NCBI RefSeq assembly: GCF_902713615.1
Contig: NC_052158.1
Location: 32,529,990 to 32,593,989, forward strand
Reading direction: 5' to 3'
DNA length: 64,000 nucleotides
DNA from: Scyliorhinus canicula
Taxonomy: Eukaryota
The notes under the pieces are model-generated. The model saw nothing but the letters and a program-made list of their open reading frames with translations, did not search any database and was not told the DNA's origin. The translations under genes were made by a program, and so were the position numbers. Of the stretch, positions 1,341-39,593 are shown piece after piece. Numbering within the stretch: position 1 is the stretch's first letter; each line of letters begins with the position of its first letter.

Positions 1341-1343
1341 CAG

Positions 1344-1604: not shown

Positions 1605-1707
1605 GTGAGTCCTCAATCTCCCAGCACTCGGTTCCAATGGGGAGTACCTCAGAGTGGATCAATCTGGGAGACAGAGGCTGATGGTTGTGGATGGGGCAGT
1701 AAATTAT

Positions 1708-1842
1708 TAGATAAAAGCAAATTACGGCAGATGCTGGAATCTGAAGCCGAAGAGAAAATGCTGCAAAATCTCAGCAGGTCTGGCAGCATCTGTAGGGAGA
1801 GAAAGGAGCTGACGATTCGAGTCCAGATGACCTTTTATCAAA
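1708..1842 (+). repeat. Short interspersed repeat (GCAGATGCTGGAATCTGAA...CAGCAGGTCTGGCAGCATC); inverted relatives at ~6657-6733 and ~41050-41110
   Basis: Three related copies are visible in this window. Confidence 0.6.
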
Positions 1843-2000
1843 TCAGTAACTGGGTTGTAGCTGGTTGTAAATTACATCGGCTGGGTTTGTATTGTGGGCA
1901 GGGCCACCCAGTGAACCTGCTTCTGATTGGCTGCTTGCATTGTAAGTGGGGCCTCTGGTAGGACTGCCTCTGATTGGTGGCTTGTGTTTCTGATCTACAG

Positions 2001-2206
2001 CCAGAGGGGGTGGGATGGAGAGGATTTCATCAACTTCGACGAGAGTAACAACATGTGGGTGACTCCTGTCCCCTGGGGAGAGGGCATCAAAAACAGGTGG
2101 AACCAGGACACTGCCGGCAAACAGCGATGGAAATATCACGTTCAGGGGGAGTGTATGGAGTGGCTGAAGAAATACCTGGAGTATGGACAGAGAGAACTGA
2201 GAGTCG
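2001..2206 (+). pseudogene. MHC class I alpha2 exon lacking approximately residues 91-114
   Basis: Translates QRGWDGEDFINFDESNNMWVTPVPWGEGIKNRWNQD...GECMEWLKKYLEYGQRELRV with donor GTCG|gtgagt. The nearest acceptor (tacag at 2000) is phase 2, and the GxHxxQxMYGCEL segment is absent. Confidence 0.9.
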
Positions 2207-4792: not shown

Positions 4793-4855
4793 GGTGATGT
4801 CTTTAATTCTCTATCTCAGGTTTCCTGTACTGATTCCTCTTTCTTTCTCTCTCAG

Positions 4856-7150: not shown

Positions 7151-8930
7151 GTTGCCTGCACCATTGTGTCGACACCCTCGAAGATGCTCCTCAGTGACTT
7201 GGACACATTCCCCAGTGACTGGGCCATGCTCTGCAGTGCCTCGGGAATGCCCACCAGCGACTGAGGCAAGCTCTTCAGGGGATCAGCCATTCCCACCTGA
7301 GAGCGGGATATGTCCCGCACAACCTCATCAAGGTAAGCCTGGTATTGGGGAACATCCTTCAGCGAGGCAGACATACTGTCACGACCTCAGCCGTGGGCGT
7401 CACCGACTGCGCGATGCCTTGGACACCTTCACTAATGGTGCCGACGTCATGCACCAGGCTCTCCACTGCGGTCGCCACCCTAGCAGTGTTGGCCTCAGTG
7501 CCACTCATTGCCACTGACATCCCCTGCGCCCGTAGCCTCTGGGACTCCTCTAATCAGCTATGGATCTGCTGGAGTGATGCTGACATCTCCCTCTGAATGT
7601 CCCGGCCATTCCCTAACGTCTCCATAAGCTCTGGGTAACCCTGTTCCTGAGCCTCTGGAACAGGGTTACCCAGAGACCCAACTGGGTCTCGGGATCCAGC
7701 AGCCCTCCGACTGCTGTCTTGCCTGGGGGGGGGGGGGGGGGTATAATGCCTCCACCAGATGTGCATGATCAGAAGTGTGGTGCTCACCAGATTGTGCCCC
7801 AGAAGCCTGACCACTAAATTTTCCCACCGAGGGTGTGTATCTGTGCTAGTGGAGGGTAAGGATGACAGCTGCAGCTGTGCCACGACTATAATGGTTGCAT
7901 CCTCGGAGCTCTCCTCCGAGGTGTTCTCCTCAGGGTCAGGAGAGGGGGCCGCCGTGGAATAGGCCGGCTGGAGGACCTGCGGGGGGGAACGGGCATATGG
8001 TCAGTGGGAGGGATGGGTCAGTCAGTAAGGCATTGACACCTCACGTTTGACAGGACCCCCGGGTGGAGCCCAGTGGTTCCTCACATTTGCGGCTGCCGCC
8101 AGCCTCCGCATGGGTGACTGCCCTGTCCTCGGCCAACCCCAGTCTGGGCCTTCTCCTGCCGATTATGGGAGAGCTTTTCCTGACAAGACACAGTGAGGGC
8201 ATCGTTAGCCAGGTGTGTGGTTCACGGTTGTGGGGCGGGATGGTGGTGAAGGGTGTTGGGTGGAGGAGGATTGAAATAGTGGGTGGAGGGAGGGCTGTAG
8301 TGGGAGGGGAATGGAGGGTTGGGGGTCACCTGGGGGGAGCCTCCCTAGAGGTGTGTGGGGGGGGGGGTTGGTGGAATGTTGCGTCTAGTCACCCATGCTG
8401 CTCGGTGCAGGTCATTGGCCTTGTTCCCGCACTGGAGGCCAGTCCTCCTGGTCAAACTCCCCGAGCTGACAGCTGCCACCACGTCATCCCAGGCAGCATT
8501 GGCTGCCTTGTGGCTCATCGCTCGGGACCCTCGGGGGAACAGTTCATCCCTCCTCAACTCCACCATGTCCAGGTGACTCCACAGGTCAGCATCCCCGAAT
8601 TATGGGATGGTCTCCTGGGCTCCATTGTTGCGATGTGGCTGGGGTTGGCTGAGCAAGAGCAGCTTCTCTCTCTCTAACAGAGCCATTCTCCCCCTTCCCC
8701 CTCGCATTCGCCCCCTTCCCCCTCGCATTCGCCCCCATCCCCCTCACATTCGCTCCCATCCCCCTCGCATTCGCCCCTTCCCCCTCACATTCGCCCCCAT
8801 CCCCCTCATATTCGCTCCCACCCCCCTCGCATTCACCCCATCCCCCTCGCATTCGCCCCCTTCCCCTCGCATTCGCCCCCATCCCCCTCGCATTCGCCCC
8901 CTTCCCCTCGCATTCACCCCATCCCCCTCG
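7151..8930 (-). mobile_element. Harbinger-type transposon remnant with Myb/SANT-like DNA-binding gene; ends in a ~14-15 bp CCCCTCGCATTCGCC repeat at the gap
   Basis: ORF 8345-8566 reads VELRRDELFP...AAWDDVVAAVSSGSLTRRTGLQC..K.NDL (Myb/SANT-like domain), and downstream coiled-coil-like ORF 7135-7374 follows it. Confidence 0.7.
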
Positions 8931-9430
8931 NNNNNNNNNNNNNNNNNNNNNNNNNNNNNNNNNNNNNNNNNNNNNNNNNNNNNNNNNNNNNNNNNNNNNN
9001 NNNNNNNNNNNNNNNNNNNNNNNNNNNNNNNNNNNNNNNNNNNNNNNNNNNNNNNNNNNNNNNNNNNNNNNNNNNNNNNNNNNNNNNNNNNNNNNNNNNN
9101 NNNNNNNNNNNNNNNNNNNNNNNNNNNNNNNNNNNNNNNNNNNNNNNNNNNNNNNNNNNNNNNNNNNNNNNNNNNNNNNNNNNNNNNNNNNNNNNNNNNN
9201 NNNNNNNNNNNNNNNNNNNNNNNNNNNNNNNNNNNNNNNNNNNNNNNNNNNNNNNNNNNNNNNNNNNNNNNNNNNNNNNNNNNNNNNNNNNNNNNNNNNN
9301 NNNNNNNNNNNNNNNNNNNNNNNNNNNNNNNNNNNNNNNNNNNNNNNNNNNNNNNNNNNNNNNNNNNNNNNNNNNNNNNNNNNNNNNNNNNNNNNNNNNN
9401 NNNNNNNNNNNNNNNNNNNNNNNNNNNNNN
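8931..9430. other. Assembly gap (500 N)
   Basis: Run of N. Confidence 1.
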
Positions 9431-9639: not shown

Positions 9640-10180
9640 TTGTCCACTCATGCTCTGTCTTTGTGTGCCTTTGTCTGTGCATGTGTGTCTATCTATGTGT
9701 CTGTATCTCTGTGTGCGTGTGTATCAATCTATGTGCACATCTGTGTGTGTCTGTCTGTGTGACTGTGTGTGTGTCTGTGTGTGTGTATCTGTGATTATCT
9801 GTGTGTATGTGTCTCTGTGCGTGACTGTCTGTGTGTGGCTGTCTCTGTGTTTGTGTCTGTGTGTCTGTGTCTGGTCTGTGTCTGTCTGTGTCTGTCTGTG
9901 TGTCTATGTCTGTGTACGTGTGTCTGTCTGTATGTGTGTCCATGTCTGTGTGTGTGTGTGGGTGTGTGTCTATGACTGTGTGTGTGCCTGTGTTTGTGCG
10001 TGTTTATATCTGTGTGTTTCTGTCTCTGTGTGTCTTTGCCTGCAAGCCTCGTGTGTGCGAGAACCTCCTTTCTCTGTGTCTGTCTCTCTCTCTGTCGCTC
10101 TTGTCTCTCTCATTCTTTCTCTCCATCTCTTTTTCTCTGCCTTTGTATCTCGTGCACTGGTTCTGCCTCTCTCTGTGACA
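9640..10180. repeat. (GT)n/(CT)n-rich degenerate microsatellite
   Basis: Directly visible. Confidence 0.95.
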
Positions 10181-11690: not shown

Positions 11691-12009
11691 GGGCCCTCCT
11701 TATCCTTTACTAACTAAAGAGCAGCTCATCCAGTTTACCACTGAGATTTGAGATTGGCCTTCTGGAGATGGCTGCTCATTGTATCCCTGATGCTGAAGAT
11801 AATTGGGTTGTTAAGGTGCTCAGACATCCAGAAGCATCTCCCCATGGAAACTCGCATCTCAGCCACTTAAATTCTTTAAGGAAGTTGGCATCCGGAAAGT
11901 TCTTCCTGAAGTTGGTCACGGGTGTATCACTTCCACGGAATTTAGCAATAGTCATGTTTTGTGATGGGTTTCATCGTTTCCTGGATGTTTGGATATAGGG
12001 TAGAAACCA

Positions 12010-13530
12010 GGAGTTTTGCTGGTGTTTGAGGATCTGATGGGTTTTTCCGGTGTTTGGCGGTCTGATGGGTATTGCTGGTGTTTGGGGATGATGGGTTTTG
12101 CTGGTGTTTGGGGATGATGGGTTTTGCTGGTGTTTGGGGATGATGGGTTTTGCTGGTGTTTGGGGATGATGGGTTTTGCTGGTGTTTGGGGATGATGGGT
12201 TTTGCTGGTGTTTGGGGATGATGGGTTTTGCTGGTGTTTGGGGATGATGGGTTTTGCTGGTATTTGGGGATGATGGGTTTTGCTGGTGTTTGGGGGTCTG
12301 ATGGGTTTTGCTGGTGTTTAGCGGTTCTGATGGGTTTTGCTGGTATTTGGGGGTCTGATGGGTTTTGCTGGTGTTTGGGGATGATGGGTTTTGCTGGTGT
12401 TTGGGGGTCTGATGGGTTTTGCTCGTGTTTGGGGATGATGGATTTTGCTGGTGTTTGGGGGTCTGATGGGTTTTGCTGGTATTTGGGGATGATGGGTTTT
12501 GCTGGTGTTTGGGGGTCTGATGGGTTTTGCTGGTGTTTAGCGGTTCTGATGGGTTTTGCTGGTATTTGGGGGTCTGATGGGTTTTGCTGGTGTTTGGGGA
12601 TGATGGGTTTTGCTGGTGTTTGGGGGTCTGATGGGTTTTGCTCGTGTTTGGGGATGATGGGTTTTGCTGGAGTTTGGGGATGATGGGTTTTGCTGATGTT
12701 TGGGGGTCTGATGGGTTTTGCTGGTGTTTAGCAGTTCTGATGGGTTTTGCTGGTATTTGGGGGTCTGATGGGTTTTGCTGGTGTTTGGGGATGATGGGTT
12801 TTGCTGGTGTTTGGGGATGATGGGTTTTGCTGGAGTTTGGGGATGATGGGTTTTGCTGGTGTTTGGGGATGATGAGTTTTGCTGGTATTTGGGGCTCTGA
12901 TGGGTTTTGCTGGTGTTTGGGGATGATGGGTTTTGCTGGTGTTTGGGGATGATGGGTTTTGCTGGTGTTTGGGGATGATGGGTTTTGCTGGTATTTGGGG
13001 CTCTGATGGGTTTTGCTGGTGTTTGGGGATGATGGGTTTTGCTGGTGTTTGGGGGTCTGATGGGTTTTGCTGGTGTTTGGGGGTCTGATGGGTTTTGCTG
13101 GTGTTTGGGGATGATGGGTTTTGCTGGTATTTGGGGCTCTGATGGGTTTTGCTGGTGTTTGGGGATGATGGGTTTTGCTGGTGTTTGGGGGTCTGATGGG
13201 TTTTGCTGGTGTTTGGGAATGATGGGTTTTGCTGGTGTTTGGGGGTCTGATGGGTTTTGCTGGTGTTTGGGGGTCTGATGGGTTTTGCTGGTGTTTGGGG
13301 GTCTGATGGGTTTTGCTGGTGTTTGGGGGTCTGATGGGTTTTGCTGGTGTTTGGGGATGATGGGTTTTGCTGGTGTTTGGGGGTCTGATGGGTTTTGCTG
13401 GTGTTTGGGGATGATGGGTTTTGCTGGTGTTTGGGGATGATGGGTTTTGCTGGTGTTTGGTGATGATGGGTTTTGCTGGTGTTTGGGGGTCTGATGGGTT
13501 TTGCTGGTGTTTGGGGGTCTGATGGGATTT
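12010..13530. repeat. Minisatellite, ~27-28 bp unit (GGGTTTTGCTGGTGTTTGGGGATGAT / ...GGGGTCTGAT)
   Basis: Directly visible; degenerate copies also at ~15890-15975. Confidence 0.97.
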
Positions 13531-15885: not shown

Positions 15886-16236
15886 AGGTATCCGGGGTTT
15901 GATGGATTTTGCTGCTAGTATTTGTGGGGTGTCAGCTGGATCTGATGGGTTTTGTTGGGGATGTCCAAGATCTACTGGGTTTGCCTCACTCGATAGCGAT
16001 GTATTTCTTTCTCTTCCCCAGTGGCCTCCAGTGTCTTGGCTGGTAATCTAGGGGCACCAGCCACCGAGAGCAGCGTCAGGAGAGGATGAGAGAATCTGAG
16101 AAGATTTGGTTTCATCGAGGTGATGCTGAGTGACTGATTCAAGCTCTGTATCTATGGCTCTGTAAATGCAACTATGGTGATGATGTATCAGCAATTTCTC
16201 TTGGGAGTTGCATTTTATAATGTTTTGATCTGCCCT

Positions 16237-17026
16237 TGACAATCCTGATTCTTTTGCTGCCAGTCTGGACTCAATAAAATTTGAGATGGATTTGCAGGGA
16301 TCAATTATTGTTTATTTTAACCAACTATAGAACATAGAACAGTACAGCACAGAACAGGCCCTTCAGCCCTCGATGTTGTGCCGAGCCATGATCACCCTAC
16401 TCAAACCCACGCTATACCCGTAACCCAACAACCCCCCCCTTAACCTTACTTTTAGGACACTACGGGCAATTTAGCATGGCCAATCCACCAAACCCGCACA
16501 TCTTTGGACTGTGAGAGGAAACCGGAGCACCCGGAGGAAACCCACGCACACACGGACAGTGACCCAGCTGGTAATCGAACCTGGGACCCTGGAGCTGTGA
16601 AGCATTTATGCTAACCACCATGCTACCGCGCTGCCCATCTGGGTGACTCACTCTATTGGGAGAGCAGGACATCACCAGTCTCCTGCCTCTTCAACAGCCA
16701 GAGAGCAGGACACGGGAACAAAACATCTAATTTCATATACATTAAAGTTGCATCAAGTTTCACATACATACGGCCAAATAAGGCAACAGTACAAATGCAA
16801 AGCTCCCATAGGCTTTCCCCACATTCCTTAAGCTGGCCTGAGGCCCCTTTTCCAAGTATCCCTGGCAACAAAGAAATGGTCTTAGTGGCTGCCCATCCCC
16901 CTCTTCCTGCCTTGAATCCCAGTTGATGTTTAAAATTCCACTAACCTAACTCCTTATTCTAATGCAGTAAAATTTTACTCCTAACTTGGCCTAACTACCC
17001 ATTATGCCTTTCTGTTCATTTCCTCA
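16237..17026 (-). repeat. 3' LTR of provirus 1 (~480 bp) with an HE1-type SINE inserted at 16328-16636
   Basis: Matches 23342-23536 plus 27195-27485. The PPT (AAAAGGAGGGAA on the - strand) lies at 17027-17038. Confidence 0.9.
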
Positions 17027-17221
17027 TTCCCTCCTTTTATCATTTCATGATAACCTATTGGTCCAATCCCTAGCTGTGCTCAGGATTCGCCTCTCCCAGA
17101 ATTCTGCTGAGACTGCCCGCACGCAGAGGGGCAGGGGACTGTGGTATGGACTAGAGTCCCGATAGCGATTTGGCGGGGAAATGGAGGTGACAGAACATTG
17201 GTCGCTGTGCCATTAAACAAG

Positions 17222-17515
17222 TAGTTCGATTCCCGGCTGGGTCACTGTCTGTGCGGAGTCTGCACGTCCTCCCCGTGTGTGCGTGGGTTTCCTCCGGGTG
17301 CTCCGGTTTCCTCCCACAGTCCAAAAATGTGCGGGTTTGGTGGATTGGCCATGCTAAATTGCACGTAGTGTCCTAAAAAGTAAGGTTAAGGGGGAGGTTG
17401 TTAGGTTACGGGTATAGGGTGGATACGTGGGTTTGTGTAGGGTGATCATTGCTCGGCACAACATCGAGGGCCGAAGGGCCTGTTCTGTGCTGTATTGTTC
17501 TATGTTCTATGTTCT
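17222..17515 (+). mobile_element. HE1-type SINE, 5'-truncated
   Basis: GTTCGATTCCCGGCTGGGTCACTGTCTGTGCGG...TTCTATGTTCTATGTTCTA tail. Confidence 0.9.
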
Positions 17516-18900
17516 AGTATCCTTGATCGGTATACAGGCTAGCATCACAATCATTATATCGGTTGAGTAGGAATCCCCCAGTAGCCCAGTTTATCCAGCT
17601 TTGGAATGCCCATTCGGCCTTTCTAGCAATGCGGAAAGCCCTAGTTCCCACAGTGATATGAGAGACATTCGCCCAGCCACAAAGCTGAAGGCCTGCCTTC
17701 AGCGGGACACAAGTGGCGTTGTAACACATGCATTGACCTGATGTCAGGGTTATGCGACACTTCCGATCAGTACAGGTGGAGAACAGACATGTTATATTCA
17801 GTTCCATCTCTACCAGCAAACAGCTGTACCCCTCTGCTGAAACAATTCTCGTACGACCGGGAATCTCTATTGGGAATGAAGTGGCTAGGTATGAATGCCC
17901 TCCACCGTTGAAGCTTATCATACTGTGAATGGGAGTCATCACGAGGAAGGGGAAGGCAAATAGCTGGTGGGGCCGAAGCCGGAACGTAAGGAAGTGTAAC
18001 TTGCTTGGGAGGTGGCTCGGAACTGACAGTGAACCACCATTTTGGGGAGTTCCCCAAAGCGGTGAGACGGAAAATCACCTAGACACCGATGCGGGGTTCG
18101 GGTAGCAGACAACCGGTCCCTGGCCATACATGCGGTGGTAGATTTGGTCGAAGAGATTCATGCTGCCCAGGTTCCCTTCGTTCTGGGTCCTAAGTGAAGT
18201 AAGTATACCTCCTGATAACCTGCGTTCTCGTCGTGCCTCCCATCTTACTCATTCTGTCCTCTTGCTATTCCTCCTCTCTCCCCTAAAACCTTTTCCTACC
18301 CCCTCCACACGGTCTGATTTTACCTTTATGGCACCAGTCTTATCACATCCAAAATCAAATGTACATTTACTCAAAACCAAGGCAATGTCCATGGAATGTT
18401 CCCTTCCCATTGCCGGGACCGATATAATTGTTTCATGATCCCGTCATTGTCCTTTAACTTGATAACCTTCCATGAGTTGACACTATGCCCTCGTGCATGG
18501 GGGCATCGGAGAACGTCACCTCTGCATAAGTGAAATGTCCTTGTAGTTTGGTTGGGATTACAGGTATAGATGGTGTTCCAAGTGAGGCAAAGCCGAAGAC
18601 AGCACAGGTGGCCCGTATCCAATCGATCATGCTCCACACCTGTAAAACAGCGCTGGGAAAGGAGGCAGGTTAGTGACCGACCATTTTGCAGTGGTGGAGG
18701 TAGACCCAGCACTCCGCCCCTCTACTTTAACTGCAGTGGGGGTGGTAAGGAGAACTTGGAAGGGCTCCTGTCACTGTGGCTCCAACACTTTCCGAGTCCA
18801 GTTCTTAACCATGCCATAACTACCAGGCTGCACTGATGTTTCATTTTTCAAGCGAGCTATGTAATGGGGACGGTGACGGGTGAGCCGCTCGAACCTGGCT
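17514..18900 (-). pseudogene. env-like (SU-region) remnant of provirus 1
   Basis: Lies between integrase and PPT. Cys-rich, N-glycosylation-site-containing fragments (LNITC...CRITLTSGQCMCYNATCVP...WANVSHI), frameshifted, with no TM domain visible. Confidence 0.6.
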
Positions 18901-18929
18901 ATGGAGTTCCTTGAGGGCTTTAGTGAGGG

Positions 18930-19300
18930 CTAGAACATAGTTAGTCCAGTCATATGGTGAAACTGGACCAGTCTGGGAATACGCAGGTTCCAGGGTGTTC
19001 TAATGGGCCTGCCATAAAAGACCACGGTAGGAGAGAGCCAGGCTGATCCCGCAGGTGTGACTCGCAGCTGGAAGAGGGCAACGGGGAGCAACTTAAACCA
19101 TGTTAACCCCCTGTCCACGTAGTTTGTCCAAGTTGGTTTTGAGGGTCTGATTGTGTCTCTCAACCAAGCTGGCCATCTGTGCCCAGTACGCACAGTGGAA
19201 CTGTTCGCGTATGCTCAACTGGGAGCAGAACTCCTTGTTAATCTGTCCGATAAAATGGGGCCCATTATCAGAACTTAACTGAGCTGGTATTCCGTACAAA
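18930..19300 (-). pseudogene. Retroviral integrase core, gamma/epsilon (class I)-like
   Basis: YGIPAQLSSDNGPHF...FHCAY...SLVERHNQTLK...W.KLLPVALFQLRVTP...LSP....YGRP, covering the second D and the E of DDE. Confidence 0.85.
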
Positions 19301-19614
19301 AACAGCTCATCATATTTTTACAGCCTCTGGCTCTCCGTCCAGCTTCCTTCTGGTGTGATGGTCACCAGTAACGGGATGTCATCTTGGTGAGTAATGATGG
19401 GCCAAGTCTATCGGCATCATCCGAGCCATAGCCAGCTTACAACACATATTAAGGCATCCAATGACTATACAGTATACAATTATAATAACAAGTATTATCA
19501 ATCCATGTATCAGGTAAAACCCCATGACCAAGCTATGAGAGCTAACTCTGAGCTGAGTCCTGCTGTAGGGTTTATATCCCTCTTATAGTTGTACTGACTA
19601 GCAACTATCCCTCA

Positions 19615-22560
19615 TCCTTGTCATTTGTATGTACATGTCATGATTTGTAAACTGTGCACGGAAATCAATGGTAAATGCATCCATCTCGCAGACCAGTGTC
19701 GATAGATCCTTTGTGAGGTGCTTTCCTCATGTCCAATCACCGTGAACCATAGCTGGAGCCGCTCAGGAAGGTAACACAATACCTATGACCGTGTGTCCCA
19801 CTACCTCCAAGGCATCTGAATACCTTGGTGTAGCAGCACCGTAAAAGCTTCCTCATGTCCCTTAGAAACAGCACAGAACTCAGTCTATCAGCGACCAAAA
19901 GGTCTTTTATCCCTCACTGGGTTTTATCTTTATATAGGAAGTGCTTTCTGTTTCTCATGGGAATGGTAAATTATGATATCATGTATTATCCACTGATTAT
20001 CTTGCTTTATTAATTGCAGGAGCTTCAACCGATCCTGTTTCTATTCCTGACTTCCTTGCACTAACGTCGAACATTGTACTGATCCATGTAGCCTCACAGC
20101 CCTGGCTTACTTGAGACAATAGCTCAGTTTTCAACAAACCCCTTTTGTCTGTTATCATCATTTTCCTTAGAGCATGAAATGTATACTTGCCATTATTCGT
20201 TTTTTTTTAATAACACCACTCACATTTAATACACTTAACTTTTTTTGGTTACAAGCCAGTTGAATCCATACATAACAGTCCCTAACAACTTACAGGACAT
20301 TTCGTCTGTAATAACTGTTATACTCTCCAATGCTATATTGGTTGCTGCATTGGTTACAAATTTTCCCTCGTGGCAGCGAGCTGCCAAGATTCTTAAACTC
20401 TTGTCATTTAAAATACCGGGGTTCCTCGTCAGTCGCTGCTGTCTGCCGAGACCCTTAATAACTCCACCACATAATATGCCCCTCCTGGAGACCACAGATC
20501 ACCCATCAGCTAACGTCCAGTTAGAGATGTCTGACCGGACGTTTCACTGTTCAGTAATAATTTGATATTTTGATTTGTTGCTAACCCGTAAGGTTTTTCT
20601 TCCGGGCTCTATCATTTATTTCCCTCAAATATGTAGCCAATTGTATCATTAGTTTTTTTCCCATACTGTCTGAAACATTCTTCTCCGGAGTGTTGTTCAG
20701 GTTCGTCATCTGTATTGTTGTTGCTTCATCTGAAACCCAAATGAACAGGTCAAAGGCGGAGAGGGCCCTATTTCTTGATTTGTATCTTCCTATCCTTGCT
20801 TGGATATTCCAGAAGTATCCTCTCTAGGACTTCCGGATTTCCATTGCCACCATTCCTCTTTTTCTAACTCAGTGATTCAATCAGGTCGAAACTTTCCCTG
20901 ATACATTTTGGATATTGATACTGCATCTACTTCAATGTTTTTAATTCTGATTGTGACAGGATAAGTTCCGAACATGACATTTTCACTGTATCATCTGTCC
21001 CACTGATGCTGCTAACAAGTTTCAATTCACTGGCATCCTGACACCCACACCAAAACATTCCTTTTTCCCTTGTCCGAGCGGTTGGGGGATATGATCTATC
21101 CTGTGGCACGGCATCATTGCAGTAATACAGTCTCTAAGCACTGTTAGGCTAATTTTACGTCACCAGGTCATCACAAACTTCAATCACCAGTATTGCTTTG
21201 AGCCAAAGCATTTCCCCATTTCTATTGTTATAAATGCAATATAAAATCGTCTGACTACACTGTATCTGTCATTCTCCTAGGTTACATATGATTACTCCTT
21301 GACCAAACTACTGGGCTACAGGACGTGCCACACCTTTGACACGATGTTTCATTATGTTCACAATTAATCATTTTAAACTGGCAACCAATTATCTAATGCA
21401 ACTTACCCTGTGCTTCTATCAGCTGTGATTAAAAGTACAAATTACTTTTGCTGCTCCGAGGAAAAAGAGGGCCTCCACACTCTCATGACCATTCTTCCAA
21501 CGGTGTCTCAAATACTCCAAAGTTCTCATGATTTGTTGAACCCCGTTTTGTGAAACAGGCGCTGTGATTCTAGTAACTTTCTCTCTCATCCCAACTCTGG
21601 CCTCTCTGCCTGCCTTTGACACTGAATACCCTAAATAGTCGACTTTGCTCCTGCCAATCTGGCATTTCTTTAACCCTATTTTAAATCCTACTTCACTAAG
21701 TGTTTTAGTAACTTTGGTCACTCTTTCAACATGTGTCCCACTGATCATCATCTCTAATTAACATTATCAATGTATACTAAAGCCAAATCATGTTTAATCA
21801 GCTCCCTGACTATTGCCAGAAAGTGGTTCAGGGAATTGGTTGTGGCAATTTACAGTATACATAATGTTTAGTGCCAAAGGTATTACTAGTTTTGCTTTCC
21901 TTATCTCCTCTAGTTATCAATTGGTGTTTATATCTTAATTTTTTATTTTTTTTGCATCTATTTTAATTAATCTTTCCCTGACATCAGATTCTCATTTCCT
22001 GATACTGCAAGTAATACTCCGAATCTAAGCTCCGGTCCCACAAGCATCCACAAATTTGGAACACACCGAACAAAATTTTTAATTGTAGGTGCATCATGGC
22101 TACCTCTAACAAAGGAGCACATGGCACACACCGAATGCCTAGTCTTCACATTTCAATTTAGATTCCTTTGTTCTCTTATTTCTTAATTAATTTTTTTATC
22201 AGCCAAGACTATGCCGCGTTGAAACTAATCATTTACAAATCCCAATTTATACATTTTGATTTTGCTTTGTGTTTACTTCCTGAGAATTATGTTCTAATTA
22301 ACTCCCACAATGTTAATCATTATTACTGATTTTCTAAAGAACTTTTAAATACTTACCCCGTTTTAAATCTCACTTTAACGGCCGAGTATACCTCCTAATT
22401 GATGTGCAGCTTCGTTTTGCAAACCACAACATTTTAAAAACTAGGAATACCAGAGGATGTTCACAAATTCTTATTAAACTGACTCATTCATTCGTTGGCG
22501 ATCTCCATTCAAACAAAAGGAATTCAAATGATTATACTTTCATTCATCTCAAACAACCGA
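19615..22560 (-). pseudogene. Foamy (spumaretrovirus)-like internal block: protease end, RT palm/thumb fragment and unknown downstream ORFs
   Basis: LVYIDN followed by HVERVTKV.KTLSEVGFKIGLKKCQIGRSKVDYLGYSVSKAGRE...KVTRITAP resembles foamy RT (HVQQLEKVFQIL..AGY.VSLKKSEIG..VEFLGFNITKEGR; recalled from memory). The block is collinear with 34930-37560. Confidence 0.75.
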
Positions 22561-23320
22561 ACAATAAAAGTTTGAATTTTTCAAAGAAACCAGAATAGAA
22601 TTTTAGCAAATCCTGAGAGCTCTCCGATATGGTTCTAAACTTCCCAAGTCTCTGGTTCCCCCTCGTGGACATTCATCTCCCAATTCTTTGTTTCACTCAA
22701 AAAAACATATCTCCCAACAATAAATTTTAACTTAGCCAATTCTAATTGTACGGAATTGAATTGTCTCCAGAACATTCCGTCAGCGGTCTTTACCGAAGTG
22801 TCTCTGTGACATTCCATCAACCCGTTAAAGACCTTAACCAAATTAAAGTGTAATTTAATATAACCAATTTTAGCCAATTCTAATTGTACGGAATTGAATT
22901 GTCCCCAGAACATTCCATCAGGGGTCTTTACTGAATTGTCTCTGTGACTTCCATCAATCCGTTAAAGACGTTAACAGAATTAAAGTGTAATTTAATATAA
23001 CTAATTTAAATTTTCAACTCACATGCAACTGACTGACTAGGCAACATTCCAACAGTCACTAGCTGAATTGTTACTGCGTATTCACTCAATCATGTTCAAC
23101 CCCTCAGCCGTACCAGCAGTGACTGAAATTAATTCTTCTAATCCGCCAAACTGACCTTTGATTTCGTCGAGACGATCTTACCTGATTAGACTGTAATCAG
23201 AATACGAGAGAGAGTAAAATCGACATGGCAATTTTCCAGCTACTCCTATCGTGGGTCCATTTCCTCTTCCAAGATCAGTCCAGTTCTGATTTCGCAGATG
23301 AGAGGTGATCATCTGGAGAA

Positions 23321-23339
23321 ATCCCGGAGTTTGGCACCA
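23321..23339 (-). promoter_or_regulatory. Primer-binding site, tRNA-Phe-like (TGGTGCCAAACTCCGGGAT)
   Basis: Directly follows the LTR end ...TGTCA. It differs from the canonical Phe PBS TGGTGCCGAAACCCGGGAT by a one-base shift. Confidence 0.7.
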
Positions 23340-23536
23340 AATGACAATCCTGATTCTTTTGCTGCCAGTCTGGGCTCAATAAAATTTGAGACTGATTTGC
23401 AGGTATCAATTATTGCCTATTTTAACCAGCTAACTGGGTGATTCACTCTATTGGGAGAGCAGGACATCACCAGTCTTCTGCCACTTCAACAGCCAGAGAG
23501 TAGGACAAGGGAACAAAACATCTAATTTCATATGCA

Positions 23537-24140
23537 GAGGGCAGCAGAGCAGAGCTATGGATCATCTGTTCTGGGGAAATTTGCATACGTGCAGTGCTGT
23601 CAGCCAAATTTGAAGGTGTACCTGCGAAGGAGACCCGAGGAGTTTGAGTGAAGGAAAGCATCCAGCAGAGGGCAGCAGAGCAGAGCTACTGATCATCTGT
23701 TCTGGGGAAATTTGCATACGTGCAGTGCGGTCAGCCTAATTTGAAGGTGTACCTGTGAAGGAGACCCTAGGAGTTTCAGTGAAGGAAAGCATCCAGCAGA
23801 GGGCAGCAGAGCACAGCGACTGATCATCTGTTCTGGGGAAATTTGCATACGTGCAGTGCGGTCAGCCTAATTTGAAGGTGTACCTGTGAAGGAGACCCGA
23901 GGAGTTTTAGTGAAGTCAAGAATCCAGCAGAGGGCAGCAGAGCAGAGCTACTGATCAACTGTTCTGGGGAAATTTGCATACGTGCAGTGCGGTCAGCCAA
24001 ATTTGAAGGTGTACCTGTGAAGGAGACCCGAGGAGTTTGAGGGAAGGCAAGCATCCAGCAGAGGGCAGCAGAGCACAGCTACTGATCATCTGTTCTGGGG
24101 AAATTTGCATACGTGCAGTGCGGTCAGCCTAATTTGAAGG
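23537..24140 (+). repeat. 131-bp tandem monomers (about 4.6 copies) at the CR1 5' end
   Basis: Unit starts at 23537, 23668, 23799, 23930 and 24061. Confidence 0.95.
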
Positions 24141-25616
24141 TGGTTTGTGGAGGGGCTGTTGTCTAGTGACAGTTAAACCCGAAACACTTCGTCGGTGTTT
24201 CCCACCCTGCCTCCTCCTCTAACCAAAAATAAACCACGGTCATTGGGAAGCGGGAGCAGGGGCCTGTCGTGAAGGTGAGTGAGTGCCTTTAAATTTGCTT
24301 ACCTTTCAGCGGGAGCAGGGTTTGAGGGAATATCAGGTAAGCTCTTCCTTTCTTTTTCTTGCTTTTAAAAAAAATCTAGAGGTGATGTCAGGGAAGGCAG
24401 TACAATGCTCCTCCTGTGGACTGTTTGAGGTGAGGGACACCGTCAGTGTCCCTGCTGATTTCATCTGTGGGAAGTGCACCCAACTCCAGCTCCTCAAAAG
24501 CCGTGTTAGGGACCTGGAGCTTGAGCTGGATGAACTTCGGATCATTTGGAAGGCAGAGGGGGTCATAGATAGAAGCTTCAGGGAAGTAGTTACACCAAAG
24601 ACTGGAGATAGATGGGTAACTGTAAGAGGGACTGGGAAGAAGCAGTCAGTGCAGGGACCCCCTGCGGTCGTTCCCCTGAGTAACAAGTATACCGTTTTGG
24701 ATACTTTTGGGGGGATGACTCACCAGGGGTAAGCCATGGGGTATGGGCCTCTGGCACGGAGTCTGTCCCTGTTGCTCAGAAGGGAAGGGGGGAAAGGAGT
24801 AGAACATTAGTAATTGGGGACTCAATAGTCAGGGGCACAGATAGGAGATTTTGTGGGAGCGAGAGAGACTCACGTTTGGTATGTTGCCTCCCAGGTGCAA
24901 GGGTACGTGATGTCTCGGATCGTGTTTTCCGGGTCCTTAAGAGGGTGGGGGAGCAGCCCCAAGTCGTAGTCCACATTGGCACTAACGGCATAGGTAGGAA
25001 AGGGGACAAGGATGTCAGGCAGACCTTTAGGGAGCTAGGATCGAAGCTCAGAGCGAGAACAAACAGAGTTGTTATTTCTGGGTTGTTGCCCGTGCCACGT
25101 GATAGTGAGACGAGGAATAAGGAGAGAGAGCAATTAAACACGTGGCTACAGGGATGGTGCAGGCAGGAGGGATTCAGATTTCTGGATTACTGGGGCTCTT
25201 TCTGGGGAAGGTGGGACCTCTATAGACAGGATGGTCTACATCTGAACCTGAGGGGCACCAATATCCTGGGGGGGGGGGAGATTTGTTAGTGCTCTTTGGG
25301 GGGGTTTAAACTAATTCAGCAGGGGCATGGGAACTTGGATTGTAGTTTTGGGGTACGGGAGATTGAGAGTATAGAGGTCAGGAGCACAGATTTGACTTCG
25401 CAGGAGGATGCCAGTGTTCAGTTAGGTGGTTTGAAGTGTGTCTACTTCAATGCCAGGAGTATACGAAATAAGGTAGGGGAACTGGCAGCATGGGTTGGTA
25501 CCTGGGACTTCGATGTTGTGGCCATTTCAGAGACATGGATAGAGCAGGGACAGGAATGGTTGTTGCAGTTTCCGGGGTTTAGGTGTTTTAGTAAGCTCAG
25601 AGAAGTGGGCAAAACA

Positions 25617-26992
25617 TAGAACATAGAACGATACAGCGCAGTACAGGCCCTTCGGCCCTCGATGTTGCACCGACATGGAAAAAATCTAAAGGCCATCTAA
25701 CCTACACTATGCCCTTATCATCCATATGCTTATCCAATAAATTTTTAAATGCCCTCAATGTTGGCGAGTTCACTACTGTTGCAGGTAGGGCATTCCACGG
25801 CCTCACCACTCTTTGCGTAAAAAACCCACCTCTGACCTCTGTCCTATATCTATTACCCCTCAATTTAAGGCTATGTCCCCTTGTGCTAGCCACCTCCATC
25901 CGCGGGAGAAGGCTCTCGCTGTCCACCCTATCTACCCTCTGATCATTTTGTATGCCTCTATTAAGTCACCTCTTAACCTTCTTCTCTCTAACGAAAACAA
26001 CCTCAAGTCCATCAGCCTTTCCTCATAAGATTTTCCCTCCATACCAGGCAACATCCTGGTAAATCTCCTCTGCACCCGTTCCAAAGCTTCCACGTCCTTC
26101 CTATAATGAGGCGACCAGAACTGTACGCAATACTGCAAATGCGGCCGTACTAGAGTTTTGTACAACTGCAACATGACCTCATGGCTCCGGAACTCAATCC
26201 CTCTACCAATAAAGGCCAACACACCATAGGCCTTCTTCACAACCCTATCAACCTGGGTGACAACTTTCAGGGATCTATGTACATGGACACCGAGATCCCT
26301 CTGCTCATCCACACTACCAAGAATTTTACCATTAGCCAAATATTCCGCATTCCTGTTATTCTTTCCAAAGTGAATCACCTCCCACTTCTCCACATTAAAC
26401 TCCATTTGCCACCTCTCAGCCCAGCTCTGCAGCTTATCTATGTCCCTCTGTAACCTGCAACATCCTTCCGCACTGTCTACAACTCCACCGACTTTAGTGT
26501 CGTCTGCAAATTTACTCACCCATCCTTCTGCGCCCTCCTCTCGGTCATTTATAAAAATGACAAACAGCAACGACCCCAGAAAAGATCCTTGTGGTACGCC
26601 ACTCGTAACTGAACTCCATTCTGAAAATTTTCCATCAACTACCACTCTCTGTCCTCTTTCAACTAGCCAATTTCTGATCCACATCTCTAAATCACCCTCA
26701 ATCCCCAGCCTCCGTATTTTCTGCAATAGCCGACCGTGGGGAACCTTATCAAACGCTTTACTGAAATCCATATACACCACATCAACTGCTCTACCCTCGT
26801 CTACCTGTTCAGTCACCTTCTCAAAGAACTCGATAAGGTTTGTGAGGCATGACCTACCCTTCACAAAACCATGCTGACTATCCCTAATCATATTATTCCT
26901 ATCTAGATGATTATAAATCGTATCTTTTATAATCCTCTCCAAGACTTTACCCACCACAGACGTTAGGCTCACCGGCCTATAGTTACCGGGGT
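25617..26992 (-). mobile_element. Second, 5'-truncated CR1 (RT to 3' tail), antisense inside the first
   Basis: Minus ORFs read NPGNYRPVSLTSVVGK...DFSKAFDKVPH...GVPQGS...KFADDTK through to FFTQRVVRPWNALP; the tail TTCTATGTTCTA is at the left end. Confidence 0.9.
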
Positions 26993-27899
26993 TGGTGAGG
27001 CCGTGGAATGCCCTTCCTGCAACAGTAGTGCACTCGCCAACATTGAGGGCATTTAAAAGTTTATTGGATAAGCGTATGGATGATAATGGCATAGTGTAGG
27101 TTAGATGGCCTTTAGTTTTTGACTTCCCATGTCGGTGCAACATCGTGGGCTGAAGGGCCTGTACTGCGCTGTATCATTCTATGTTCGATGTTCTATATGC
27201 ATTCAAGTTGCATCAAGTTTCACAGACATACAACCAAATAAGGCAACGGTACAAATGCAAAGCTCCCAGAGGCTTTCCCCACATTCCTTAACCTGGCCTG
27301 AGGCCCCTTTTCCCAGTATCCCTGGCAACAAAGAAATGGTCTTCGTGGCTGCCCATCCCCCTCTTCCTGCCTTGAATCCCAGTTGATGTTTAAAATCCAC
27401 TAACCTAACTCCTTATTCTGCTGCAGTAAAGTTTTACTCCTAATGTGGCCTAACTACCCATTATGCCTTTCTATTCATTTCCTCACCCTAATAATGGAGT
27501 ATAGAATCCCGCCACCAGCTCAGTCTGCTGGGGGACTGGAGTATCCTGGGCAATATTTATTTTTCAGTGAATGATGCACCACCGAAAACACATGGCTGTG
27601 AAACCGGAGAATCCTACCCGGGATTTCCCATTGTAACCACCCCACACCGCCGGGAAACCCATGGGTTGCGGTGCACTGCCAGTGGGAAAAGAGAATCCTG
27701 ACAATTGGAGAATTCCAGTCAGTGTTGTCTCTGTAAAGCCCTCAGTACAAAACTGATGCCACGCTGGTGGGGAACATCTTTCAAGAATGAAATTATCTCC
27801 AATCTATATTGAGAGGGAATAATAAAATTATAACGGCAAACACAGATTTCAAAAGGAAGGTGGTGCTTGTCAACGTTCCAAGCATTATTAGAAGATATA

Positions 27900-33416: not shown

Positions 33417-34870
33417 TGTTTTTGAAAACTCACTACTATTCTTAGAATTCCCCCTATACCAAAAAGGGCCAATATTCTAAATGGTGAACATGGATTCTCA
33501 CTCCCTGACTCCGATGCAGGCTTCGGTGGGTGCTATTCAGGTCAAACTATATTTTCAAGTTATCCCCCAGTATAACCCATACCTTCATCGAAGATTTTAT
33601 CTACTTACCACTTAGTAGCATCGATGTCCTGGGTCCTGCATTGCTAAGTAAGTAACGTAGACTTTAGGAAAAAAACACTTTTTCAGGTTAAGTTAACTTA
33701 TTTTATTATTATATTTTTTCTTTTAAAAGCTGCAAACACTTTCTTTACAGAAAGGTAAAAAGATCTTGCTTCTGGATCCTTCCTGTTGGTTGAAGGGACC
33801 TTCAGGCCCAACTTGACACTCAATCTTCTTTAAATTCTGGTCTTCTTGGGAAGTATTCGCTGGTTAGCTCTGTTGCTGTCTTGTTGATCCATGTACTGAG
33901 CTATAAGAGCTAACTCTGCTAGCTATCTCTAAGCTGACTCTGGCTCCTGTTTAAATTCTAGTCTTCCTTAGATGTATAACTGTTTAAACTCGGCTGCTTG
34001 CCTTGTCTTTCCCATGACCGAGCTCTCTCTCTCTCTCTCAGTTCTCCTCCCCTTCTCTCCTGTTACTGTTGCTCTGCTCTGTGGTTGTTGCTGCTGCTCC
34101 CTGGGTTTATATTCTCTTCCTAACAATTATTAAGTTTTTAGAGCCTTATGGTAAATTAACTTATTTCCCTTTGATTGTTAAAAAGTATCTTTGATGTAAA
34201 CATTTGAATACAACTAATTATTCATTTTGGGCATAACGTCACCTCAGATCTGATTACATTATCCTTTGTGATGTTCAAAGTTCCTTTGGTTTCAATAGGT
34301 GTTGGTCTCCACTTCTGTGCTTTCGAATTGCTTAATTTTCCAATTGTCCCCAGCTCATAACTTTGCCTTTGATTTTGACTTTAAATTGTGTCTCCCGTAG
34401 ACAGGTCGTCTCCAATTTTCTTTTAATTAACTTGATGTTCGTAGAATTTTACACTTTAGAATTGACACCAAATTCGACTGAGCATCTTCCATCCTTTCCA
34501 GCTGTTTACTAAGAGTGTATTTCAATTAAGGTGTGAGACTTTGCTTTTAGCTGTATGCTAAAATTTAACTTGGTTATGACTTGAAAGACCTGCCTATTTT
34601 AAACATTCGTCAATTGAAACTCTCATCCATGCCTTTCCAGATACTTCCTGAGATAGTTACATTCCATGAAGGTGTGAGCCATTGTTTTAGCTTACCACGT
34701 GAAACCTGTGTGTTTGATAAGCCTACTTGTGAGCAATAATCTGCATTTTACATCCTGCTCTTTGCAGCTGCTATTATCCTTTTGTGGGATCTTTCCCTGT
34801 ATCCTCTCAGACCAGATATTGCCAGACTTCCTTGTATCAAATGACACATTGTTCTGTATTTTCAAGAACA
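33417..34870 (-). repeat. 3' LTR of provirus 2 (1454 bp)
   Basis: Direct repeat of 38522-39593 with an extra 393 bp (34372-34764); weak purine tract at 34871-34879. Confidence 0.9.
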
Positions 34871-37800
34871 TCCCGTCTTGACATTTGAAACATAACTATA
34901 TAATTTGGTTAATTGTCCCCCCATCCAATTGTACTAACATATATCCCCGATCTTTGTCATTTGTATGCATGTGTTGCAATTTTAAATTGTGCACCAATAT
35001 CAACTTGTATATGTATCCATATCTCAGACCAGTGTCGATAAGAGTCTTGTTCTTCTTCCTGAAGTCCAATTACCGTGAACCATAGCCATAGCCGCTCAGG
35101 AAGGTAACACAATTGCTTTCCGTGTGTTCTACTACCTCCAAAGCATTTTACTTCCTTGGGGTAGCAGCACCGTAGGAGCTTCCTCATGTCCCTTAGAAAC
35201 AGCACACAACTCAGTCCATCAGTAACCAAAAAGGTCTTTTGTCCATCACTGGCTGTTAGGTTTCCCATTTTTCCGTCATCCAAATTGCTTTCCGTTTCTC
35301 ATTGGAATGGTAATTATGATATCATGTACCACCCACTGATCCCCTTGCTTCATTAATTTAAAAGGTTCAATTGATCCTGCTTATATTCCTAACTTCCCCA
35401 CATTAATGTCTAACATTGTCGTGAACCATGTATATCTGCCAACCCCTGGTTTACATGAGAGAATATCTTTCTGACAAATTTCCTTCAAATCCCTTTCATC
35501 TGTCCTCATTTCCCTTACAACATGAAAGTGTATATTTTCCATTACAGCATTTGCAAAACCACATTGAACTGTCACTTTTCCAAATAAATTCTCCCTATTG
35601 TTAAATACACAGTAAAAAAAGAAATTAAGTCTTATCTTAACACATTATTCATTACCTAACCACACAAATAGACTGTGTGTTACAACTTTACATATTTTCA
35701 ACTGTTATCACAATTTAAATACCAGAAATAAGGTACAATATCGAAACATCCCTTCTTCTCTTTGGGACTAATAGTTATTACATATTAAATATGGCATATA
35801 AACAACATCAATATTATTTGTAATGTTCTATTTAGTTAAATTAAGAAAACACACTAAACTACCCCTCTATTAAAACACTCACACAGTTTAGAAATGCGGA
35901 TCAAGTTCTTTAACGGCACACATACCCCCCTTATCATATATATATATAGCAGTCCCTATCAATTTACATGAAATTTCTTTCTTTAATAACAATTACAGCT
36001 CTTCAATGCAATATTGTTTTGCTGCATTGGTAACAATTTTCCTGCCGTGGCAACAAGCTACAAAAATTCTTAAATGATTGTCATTTATCATGTTGAGGTT
36101 CCTCGTCAGTCGCCGCTGTCTGCCGAGACCCTTAATAACTCCACCGCGTAGTACATACCCCATTGAGACCACAGATCATCCATCAGCTAATGTCCAGTTA
36201 GAGATGTCTGACCGGAGGTTTCACTGTTCAGTAATAATTTGATATTTTGATTTGTTTCTAACCCATAAAGTTTTCCTCTGGGTTTTGGCATTTAATTCCC
36301 TCAAATATGTAGCCAATTGTATCATTAGTTTTCCCCCAATCCTGTCTAAAAAATTCTTCTCTGGAGTGTAGTTCTCTTCCTTCTTGTAAACTGGTTTATT
36401 TATTTTTTCCATCTGAAAAATCAAATGAACAGATCAAGGGTGGAGCGGGCCCTAATCTTTAATTTGTACTTTCTGTTTTCATTTGGTTAACCCAGAAGTG
36501 CCCTCTGCAGGACTTCCGGATTTCTTTTGCCACCATTTCTTTTTGAACTGGTTTATTTTCCTTATCATTGATGTACATCATACAATTAAAGCCTGTTAAG
36601 CCTCCTTCTGTCATTGCACCCCTGAGTGAGATTCGAAGAATCTCAAACTCCTCCTCTTTTGCTCACTCTGATCCAATCTGGTCAAAACCTTACCCTGATA
36701 CATTCCTGATACTGCTACTGCATTTACTTTAATTACTTTATTTTGATTACGACCGGATTTTTATGAAAGTAAGTTCCAAACATGACATTTTAACTTAACC
36801 ATCTGTCCAATCAATGCTGCTAACAGGTTTTAATTCACTGTCTTCCCACCAATTGGATCATGTGTTTTAATTGTGATACAATTTTATTTGCTCCAGACAC
36901 CATGCTTCTCTAATTCAACTGTATGAGTACCCAGATTCTGAATGATCTTATCTTATCTTTACATTTTACAGCTTCACTGATTATTTTCCTGCAGTTTTAG
37001 TTGGCAGCTTCACCCAAATTTCCTCTGTATTATCAATTGGTTTTAATATCTTAATTTTTCTGCATCAATGTGTATTAAATCTTTTCCTGCAATCAGATTC
37101 TCATTTCCTGATACTGCAATTAATTCTCCTAATCTAACTTCTGGTCCAATATTTTTATTCTCTAATGCTCCTTCTTCAATGTATTTAACATTGTAAATAA
37201 ACATCATTATTTCTGCTAGTGACTGTCGTGATCAGCGGGCACTAGGACCCTGCGGAGCCGTGCAGTGTCAATTTCTACGCAGCAGTTTCAAAGTCTGCAC
37301 CAGCTGACTGCTGCCAGTAAAAACTTCTATCTGTTTATTCTGAGACCAATTTAGGTCTGAACATACCGATTCACTATCCCATAATACTGATCACATTTCT
37401 GCCTGCCATTTATAACTTCCAATTTATGTGAAAATCGGCTTTACAAAATACAACATTTTTTAAAAATACAAACATTAAAAGAAATTCACAATTCCTTATT
37501 AGACATACACACGCTCATTCATCCATTCAGATCTTGGATCTTTACTCTGCAGGATTTCACAAATCCTTATTAAACACACATTTATCCACTGAGATCTTGG
37601 ACCTCGATTCAGTAGGGTTTTAGTTACTCTTAACAAAAATTGAGACCCCTCCATGCTGATAAGTTTCACTTCTGCAGGAGTTTTTTTTGCCTCTGTTAAG
37701 CTTTTCCACTCTTGTTTCATTGTTTCAACTCTCTTGACCATGTTTCAGAGCAAAAGGATTATTCTCATTGCCATTTTTCGGAATTCAAGTTCTGTTCCTG

Positions 37801-38508
37801 GTTGTCCCTTTCAGTTGCAATCTGAAATTAAGGATAAGTACCCTTTCTGGGCCCTATCCAAGGCTGACTAAGGCACTATCTTCCTGTTTTAGTTAAGGGT
37901 CGATTGGTTATTGGTCTCTGAAGATTCTAGGCGTCCCTATTTTCCAGAAAATTTCCGCACAATCTGCCTTACTCTAAGGACGATTTATTTTTTGGCCTCA
38001 TTTTACCAGTAATGGATGCAAGATTTTTAGTGCTGTCACCAAGATGTCTTGCAGACTTTCACTCAGGGTCAGCATCTTCTAGTCTGCTGATTCACACCCA
38101 ACCTGAGTTTCAGTCCCCTCGATCCACAGAATATCCTTACGAAAGTCAATCACACATGACTTTCCAGACTAAACTCGACAGGTAAAGTCTGACTCACACA
38201 TAGACCAGAAACTTCTAATATTCTAGCCTTTGTGCCGGTTAGAAACTTCTAATATTCCAACCGTTTCTTGGAAACTAGAAACTTCTAATATTCTAGCCCC
38301 TACTCTAGCCCCCATTCTGCTCAGCTAGAAACTTCTAATATCCTAGCCTCGCTTAACCTAGAAACTTCTAATATTCTAGGCCTCCACGCTGGATGCCAAG
38401 GAGAAAGCAAAAAAAACGGCTGGGCATAATTAACACAATGTTAACACGTCGGGTGCCATGTAGAAAATAAAGCTACCCACTAGGCATAATTAACAGGGTT
38501 TTAATAAA

Positions 38509-38521
38509 ACGTTGGGCGCCA
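38509..38521 (-). promoter_or_regulatory. Primer-binding site, tRNA-Lys1,2 type (TGGCGCCCAACGT)
   Basis: The first 13 bases match the Lys1,2 PBS used by foamy viruses, directly after the LTR end. Confidence 0.88.
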
Positions 38522-39593
38522 TGTTTTTGAAAACTCACCACTATTCTTAGAATTCCCCCTATACCAAAAAAGGGTCGATATTCTAAATGGTGAACAGGGA
38601 TTCTCACTCCCTGACTCCGATGCAGGCTTCGGTGGGTGCCATTCAGGTCAAACTATATTTTCAAGTTATTCCCCGGTATAACCCATACCTTCACCGAAGA
38701 TTTTATCTACTTACCACTTAGTAGCATCGATGTCCTGGGTCCTGCATTGCTAAGTAAGTAACGTAGACTTTCAGGAATAAACCACTTTTTCAGGTTAAGT
38801 TAAGTTATTTTATTATTATATTTTTTCTTTTAAAAGTTGCAAACACTTTCTTTACAGAAAGGTAAAAAGGTCTTGCTTCTAGATCCTTCCTGTTGGTTGA
38901 AGGGACCTTCAGGCCCACCTTGACACTCAATCTTCTTTAAAATCTGGTCTTCTTGGGATGTATTCACTGGTTAGCTCTGTTGCTGTGTCTTGTTGATCCA
39001 TTTACTGAACTATAAGAGCTAACTCTGCTAGCTATCTCTAAGCTGACTCTGACTCCTGTTTAAATTCTAGTCTTCCTTAGATGTATAACTGTTTAAACTC
39101 GGCTGCTTGCCTTGTCTTTCCCATGACCGAGCTCTCTCTCTCTCTCTCTCTCTCTGAGTTCTCCTCCCCTTCTCTCCTGTTGCTGTTGCTCTGCTCTGTG
39201 GTTGTTGCTGCTGCTCCCTGGGTTTATATTCTCATTCTAACAATTATTAAGTTTTTAGAGCCTTATTGTAAATTAACTTATTTCCCTTTGATTGTTAAAA
39301 AGTATCTTTGATGTAAACATTTGAATACAACTAATTATTCATTTTGGGCATAACGTCACCTCAGATCTGATTACATTATCCTTTGTGATGTTCAAAGTTC
39401 CTTTGGTTTCAATAGGTGTTACCTCCACTTCTGTGCTTTCGAATTGCTTAATTTTCCAATTGTCCCCAGCTCATAACTTTGCCTTTGCAGCTGCTATTAA
39501 CCTTTTGTGGGATCTTTCCCTGTATCTTCTCAGACCAGATTTTGCCAGACTTCCATGTTTCAAATGACACATTTTTCTGTATTTTCAAGAACA
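38522..39593 (-). repeat. 5' LTR of provirus 2 (1072 bp)
   Basis: Direct repeat of 33417-34870. Confidence 0.9.

Follow-up and report, generated by a model that had tools for sequence, protein, structure and literature searches.

A multi-copy endogenous retrovirus with three parents in the genome of the shark Scyliorhinus canicula

How does a single provirus come to carry the ends of one retroviral class and a centre that resembles another? The question is raised by an endogenous retrovirus (ERV) at positions 16237-27485 of a 64,000-nt stretch of Scyliorhinus canicula DNA on contig NC_052158.1 (the window, to which all coordinates refer; searches were run over the whole 4.2-Gb genome). An initial annotation had described it as a chimera of two retroviral classes, with a class I (gamma/epsilon-like) frame around a foamy-like pol block, produced either by template switching or by nested insertion followed by deletion. 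We found an amplified recombinant ERV with three parents rather than two: a class I family, a foamy-like family and a third ERV family that supplied the end of an env gene. It occurs in many copies with independent target-site duplications (TSDs) and has a class I-like target-site bias. This multi-copy, non-coding recombinant probably arose by template switching between RNAs and was then likely amplified by a class I helper, with deletion and patchwise renewal along the way.

Three sources in one provirus

The provirus lies on the minus strand between two copies of the 4-bp TSD CCCT (seen in the sequence), and its long terminal repeats (LTRs), about 478 nt each, are identical in 455 of 485 aligned columns when a short and a long interspersed element (SINE and LINE) inserted in them are set aside. 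The annotation as a TSD-bounded unit with short LTRs therefore stands. Against Pfam, the unit matches MLVIN_C (E 7e-7) and, weakly, a piece of RVT_1. The features are as follows.

16233-16236, no strand: left TSD CCCT, from the sequence, paired with the right side
16237-17026, minus strand: class I-type 3' LTR in two parts (16237-16326 and 16639-17026), separated by a SINE that inserted later (16327-16638)
17027-17038, minus strand: polypurine tract (PPT), identical to that of the class I family
17027-17223, minus strand: remnant of the class I env transmembrane (TM) part; about 630 nt of the relative's TM are gone
17224-17516, no strand: later SINE insertion, not in sister copies
17517-18640, minus strand: class I env surface (SU) part with stops and frameshifts, 81% to non-chimeric class I copies
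18641-19297, minus strand: C-terminal half of a class I integrase (IN), broken (MLVIN_C match and tree)
19298-19519, minus strand: env membrane anchor, cytoplasmic tail and 3' spacer of the third ERV family (DNA match)
19520-19590, minus strand: foamy-type LTR remnant, with TATA (19571-19576) and the start of R
19590-21040, minus strand: foamy-type 3' non-coding region and end of pol, 72-82% to pure foamy-type copies
21392-22037, minus strand: deleted foamy-like pol pieces, namely reverse transcriptase (RT) at 21506-21873, IN N-terminal part at 21432-21560 and sequence upstream of RT at 21896-22037
22100-22520, minus strand: non-coding filler, common to non-autonomous foamy-type elements such as provirus 2
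22644-23321, minus strand: class I leader and first gag codons, containing a 138-nt tandem duplication
23322-23339, minus strand: tRNA-Phe primer binding site (PBS)
23342-27485, minus strand: class I-type 5' LTR in two parts (23342-23536 and 27195-27485), separated by a LINE that inserted later (23537-27194)
27486-27489, no strand: right TSD CCCT
33417-39593, minus strand: provirus 2, a separate non-autonomous foamy-type element with the TSD CAGT

The outer parts belong to class I. The genome contains non-chimeric class I proviruses (L088 and relatives) with gag, a murine leukaemia virus (MLV)-like RT (E 4e-42), RNase H, IN and a gamma-type env, their match to Gag_p30 being weak (E 0.02). With this family the chimera shares the LTR U5, the PBS, the leader and the first gag codons up to about 22644 and, on the other side, IN from 19297 on, the env SU and the PPT; its LTR, PBS, leader and PPT are 70-88% identical to those of the non-chimeric copies. 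The TM of the copies matched by its SU is recognized as TLV_coat, but in the chimera this part is deleted, and the class I env annotated earlier holds for SU and not for a full env. In the IN tree the chimera is sister to the class I family of this genome (support 100/97), and the match to non-chimeric copies ends at 19297, so that the class I-type integrase needs correcting to its C-terminal half. The Phe-like PBS was borne out: its perfect form is present in sister copies, and a pattern derived from it falls on ARAGORN tRNA-Phe genes at 6 of the 8 loci checked. No foamy or env-tail sequence was present in any of the 39 class I loci examined. The nearest named proteins to the class I retroviruses here come from catsharks and other cartilaginous fish.

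Some other sequences were set apart from this parent. Locus L061 was rejected as a class I parent, as nothing but a transposase-like insert lies upstream. Another class I family, younger and rich in long pol frames (L144 and matches at 70-73%), is distinct from the parent of the chimera. Of note, matches to the PBS pattern are spaced regularly at about 1.14 kb in G000:C11:10537612-10572329; the two loci checked there both contain tRNA-Phe genes, and the array would be a tandem tRNA-Phe cluster.

The centre is foamy-like. The best match of the RT piece in PDB is a foamy RT (E 2.8e-10, versus 0.009 for MLV RT), which upholds the foamy-like RT fragment of the initial annotation. In RT trees the chimera is nested within the foamy-type family of this genome (100/100). 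Fish foamy-like elements and human spumavirus fall in the same group, with support of 85/89 in a 41-row tree and 99/96 in a second tree of 12 rows fewer and a simpler model. On the second tree, constraining the chimera RT with class I RT was rejected (approximately unbiased test, p-AU 3e-43). The grouping with human spumavirus against gypsy and class I argues against a lokiretrovirus, the trees containing no named lokiretrovirus. The RT and IN phylogenies of the chimera therefore conflict, RT being foamy-like and IN class I, and do not place the two in one clade. The IN of the donor family forms a fish group separate from spumavirus IN; a fish-specific IN group is described for fish endogenous foamy viruses in the accessible part of one report (PMC7947760).

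Pure foamy-type elements in the genome have long LTRs and one 1788-codon gag-pol frame with RT, tether, RNase H and IN, whose best PDB match is foamy Pol (E 5e-80). The family leaves no space for env, and pol is followed by no long frame; an env-less foamy-like retrotransposon with a fused gag-pol frame is unusual. It has recently expanded (L072, L073, L077-L080 and many further matches), and its LTR pairs are 99.8-100% identical (n=2 pairs). The foamy pol of the chimeric copies is a nested deletion series of the 1788-codon frame. Long copies keep up to residues ~817-1390 and 1555-1605, the window copy keeps 156 residues, and a second chimeric subfamily has the same 876-to-1727 deletion as provirus 2; residues 1-808 are covered by no chimeric copy.

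Provirus 2 retains only residues 1-74, 820-876 and 1727-1788 of the frame. It has long foamy-type LTRs and a PBS that we take to be of the Lys type, and its 5' LTR is without about 390 nt found in its 3' LTR. The reported collinearity with this element holds for 19597-22038, at 75-80%, and more weakly on to ~22760, but the class I part already reaches ~22644. Provirus 2 was rejected as the direct donor, as it is only 75-80% alike and has lost the RT piece; it is a relative of the donor.

The segment 19392-19612 had been read as a foamy-type LTR remnant. This is the case for ~19520-19590 only, an extent overcalled about threefold; 19298-19519 is the env tail of the third family. The remnant 19520-19590 lacks a foamy PPT, a poly(A) signal and a U5 end, and the foamy PBS and leader are not in the chimera, whose ends are class I with a Phe PBS. 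Its motif has 213 pure foamy-type matches; all 25 examined continue differently from the chimera, and those whose end was located stop after about another 600 nt.

The third parent was recognized from this tail. An env tail of the third family matches 19298-19519 at 80.5% over 236 nt, with a score of 289 against a maximum of 34 for shuffled sequence, and the matched env is gamma-type (TLV_coat, E 7e-14). At the joint, env tail and foamy-type R share a 7-nt microhomology (19521-19527). The RT of the third family lies outside the class I and foamy-like clades (second RT tree). Members at L179, L181 and L184-L188 have a CCHC gag, a gamma-type env and a PBS that is presumably Ser-type, and the family may be snakehead-like or ERV-S-like.

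A hydrophobic 48-codon frame at 19525-19382 stays open for at least 45 codons in 32 of the 38 copies in which its start was located. A selected peptide was rejected as the explanation, as the rare changes are spread evenly over the codon positions (34/31/28) and changes are as frequent as in the adjoining DNA. No protein relative was found among 1.84 billion representatives, and by its DNA match the frame is part of an env tail. A first donor search for it gave four matches, all reading as chimeric variants; with a looser pattern, an env-tail donor was found in three of four matches.

Other insertions and repeats were recorded in the window. The LINE insert at 23537-27194 carries 131-nt tandem repeats at the LINE 5' end, an ORF1-like and an endonuclease-like stretch (by eye) and, within it, a second LINE 3' piece in inverted orientation (25613-27192). 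Minisatellite arrays with units of ~21-54 nt and shorter lie at 848-4800, 8670-8950, 9640-10055 and 11980-13430, and a run of N lies near 8930.

Copies, insertion sites and the helper

An 801-nt query across the 3' junctions matched all 40 places scored (of 936 candidates), the 39 other than the window at 91-94%, and a query for the 5' region likewise gave 40 scored loci. A 25-nt pattern over one junction occurs exactly 178 times in the genome (reversed control, 0). Because 28 of 46 fetched junction-bearing copies contain this 25-mer exactly, extrapolation from that share suggests a family of roughly 290 copies. The many copies with the same junctions that the template-switching model had predicted are thus present, and a nested insertion unique to this locus is refuted by the multi-copy family. 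It is important to note that this test does not separate the two models, as a trimmed nested insertion could have been amplified afterwards.

Among 56 fetched loci, which were picked by searches with parts of the chimera, IN, env tail and foamy block are found together in 44 and the class I leader as well in 33. Both ends with a matched 4-bp TSD (one mismatch in one) were found at 20 of 55 loci, in 20 different flanks. These flanks, each with its own TSD, refute the view that faulty assembly or segmental duplication of a single locus produced the copies, to which we give next to no credence. The region is repeat-rich and a few match pairs on C12 look duplicated, but the subfamilies differ in their LTRs, and the env-tail segment is joined to its neighbours on both sides in contigs of another organism (organism D, records 19 and 22), as it is on one side in a contig of organism C. 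Of the 22 chimeric copies measured, 20 have LTR pairs with 90.6-99.5% identity; the range in class I is 90.7-100%, which places the two families in overlapping periods. No coding function was found for the chimeric element, whose reading frames are disrupted; nearly all IN matches among the copies have one stop in common. Copies also lie next to or within other elements: one chimera sits inside a foamy-type leader (L099), one inside another chimera (L050) and one beside a foamy-type LTR (L085).

Which machinery inserted these copies? TSD length was discarded as a helper test, as it is 4 bp in the chimera, class I and foamy-type families alike. Outside the TSD, position -2 is a T at 27 of the 40 chimera ends, which come from 20 loci, at 12 of the 18 class I ends (from 9 of 39 loci) and at 1 of the 22 foamy-type ends (from 11 of 32 loci). 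By Fisher's test the chimera differs from the foamy-type family (p=8e-7) and not from class I (p=1.0), and class I differs from the foamy-type family (p=3e-5); these values come from a scan of 24 position-base cells, and the paired ends of each site are interdependent. The bias at position -3 agrees. Given this bias and the class I LTR ends, PBS and PPT, class I Gag-Pol acting in trans likely spread the chimera.

Packaging and integration could instead have been carried out by the machinery of the foamy-like family, through cis signals in the foamy block. The block has indeed been kept and re-exchanged with foamy-type RNA, the foamy-type copies include young ones, their family has gag-pol frames that are long and open, and 4-bp TSDs are made by both families. 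We nevertheless hold this very improbable, as the target-site bias is unlike that of the foamy-type family and like that of class I, while the LTR ends, PBS and PPT are all class I and the foamy PBS and leader are missing.

A possible route to the chimera

Elements in which a third-family frame holds a foamy block bear on the order of events. Sixteen third-family loci were examined, nine with a foamy-type block and seven with none. Seven of the nine blocks begin at about the filler segment of the window, and two show only the 3' part of the block. In three of the nine (L189-L191) nothing separates the foamy block from the env tail, and the two meet at the same place. L189 has the TATA-R remnant and the joint as in the window, between third-family LTRs and with a 4-bp TSD. 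Such elements look like a precursor of the class I-framed chimera. As a group (L174, L176, L178, L180, L182, L183 and L189-L191), these second chimeras have third-family LTRs, gag and pro, enclose a foamy block of the provirus 2 type and show several different 3' junctions.

Exchange appears to have continued later. Copy L089 has a sharp patch of about 870 nt, mostly common to L085, that is 86-100% like provirus 2, with flanks 82-100% like other chimeras; a later foamy-type patch seems to have replaced part of the foamy block in this sub-lineage. On this evidence, non-foamy frames took up foamy-type sequence on at least three occasions.

The template-switching route can be proposed in three steps. 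In the first, a non-autonomous foamy-like RNA would have recombined with a third-family RNA, placing third-family LTRs around the foamy block, with the 7-nt microhomology, located just within R, as the joint between block and env tail. In the second, this cassette would have been swapped into a class I genome from the start of gag to mid-integrase. Such a swap would keep all class I cis signals (LTRs, PBS, leader and PPT) and would bring in neither a PPT nor a poly(A) signal of foamy origin, either of which would truncate the RNA. In the third, class I Gag-Pol would have packaged, reverse-transcribed and integrated the product, with the foamy pol being trimmed by deletions and new foamy-type patches being acquired by exchange.

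Origin at the DNA level would explain part of the same evidence. A foamy-type provirus would have inserted into a third-family provirus and this into a class I provirus, deletions would have removed the inner LTRs, and a class I helper would have spread the result. Nested insertions are common here (as at L099 and L050), the copies form a nested deletion series, and copy number and class I target bias fit equally well. We consider this origin unlikely, as two nested insertions and no fewer than four deletions are required, every one of the deletions erasing an LTR end without trace. Moreover, the foamy LTR piece that remains is the start of R and not a U5 end, and this origin leaves unexplained how patches were renewed in register between sequences that differ by about 20%. 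Template switching is favoured because of the precursor-like family, the patchwise renewal and the internal junctions, at none of which an LTR end is retained.

Several points weigh against an origin by template switching with a class I helper. Co-packaging is deduced from the mosaics and was observed in none, and, according to a review, MLV is restrictive towards the RNA of foreign retroviruses when it packages (PMC5086612). The exact parents were not found, the nearest class I sequences being 81-91% and the nearest foamy-type sequences 72-89% identical, and the junctions are therefore read against relatives. Clear microhomology is present at only one of the three junctions, and 22520-22640 (about 120 nt at the 5' junction) and 21040-21390 are without firm assignment. 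The foamy block of the third-family chimeras is closer to provirus 2 (76-95%) than to the window block (75-87%), so these elements would be a parallel or renewed lineage and not the literal donor. Finally, the target-site samples are small and their paired ends not independent, though the contrast is large.

A wider idea is put forward tentatively and is rather unlikely: foamy-like RNA may have been repeatedly co-packaged and recombined with two non-foamy lineages in the germ line of a shark, and the foamy 3' cassette may have spread as a transferable cis module whose packaging, export or internal-promoter activity boosted defective ERVs carrying it.

Known recombinant retroviruses and what the chimera adds

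The closest known system, by analogy, is recKoRV of the koala, a group of KoRV x PhER recombinants for which co-packaging has been proposed (PMC6112702). According to the accessible part of that report, recKoRV also has the ends of one retrovirus around the middle of a dissimilar, degraded retroelement, with disrupted frames; it likewise occupies many loci with TSDs, shows microhomology at some breakpoints and arose as several independent recombinants (PMC6112702). In contrast to what is described there, RT and IN trees assign the shark partners to class I, the foamy-like group and a third lineage. The shark family is older (LTR pairs down to ~91%), has at least 178 copies in one genome, and is accompanied by a family resembling a precursor and by renewal of patches at a later time.

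XtERV-S and other cross-class env-swap recombinants are also known (PMC8278194, PMC10536682; 10.1101/2021.11.23.469661). They too unite different ERV classes in one provirus and, as in the third family here, a gamma-type env with a non-class I pol. Unlike these gene swaps with a working genome, as far as the cited texts describe them, the shark chimera has lost all coding capacity, had its pol region exchanged and drew on a foamy-like donor.

Foamy-like ERVs (FLERVs) of fish and sharks have been reported (PMC5512871, PMC5210030, PMC10699275), and the donor family resembles them, on the published descriptions available, in its RT grouping and in having RT, tether, RNase H and long LTRs. It differs from them in its fused gag-pol frame and lack of env; the chimera differs in having pol fragments only and no foamy ends. 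Epsilon-like, snakehead-like and foamy-like ERVs of sharks are known separately (PMC4422223, PMC5512871, PMC10699275). No report of a class I/foamy-like chimera in sharks was found in the literature searched, which left most subscription papers outside its scope. A 2023 paper reportedly deals with foamy ERVs of cartilaginous fish.

Non-autonomous ERVs such as VL30 and ETn are mobilized in trans by helper proteins, having kept their cis signals and lost their coding capacity. The shark chimera is unlike them in that its internal cargo can be identified as two other retroviral lineages.

Screens for ERVs based on RT will score class I-framed chimeras as insertions of foamy-like elements, whose dating may then rest on the wrong LTRs. 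Target-site bias can identify the helper of a non-autonomous element. Foamy viruses and orthoretroviruses differ in how they assemble and how they package RNA. The cross-class recombinants in the cited literature, as far as it was accessible, are env swaps, whereas here the pol region was exchanged. The recKoRV model of degradation and remobilization is extended over much deeper splits, and the shark genome offers a datable record in which foamy-like sequence passed into two other lineages in at least three exchanges, one product of which reached hundreds of copies.

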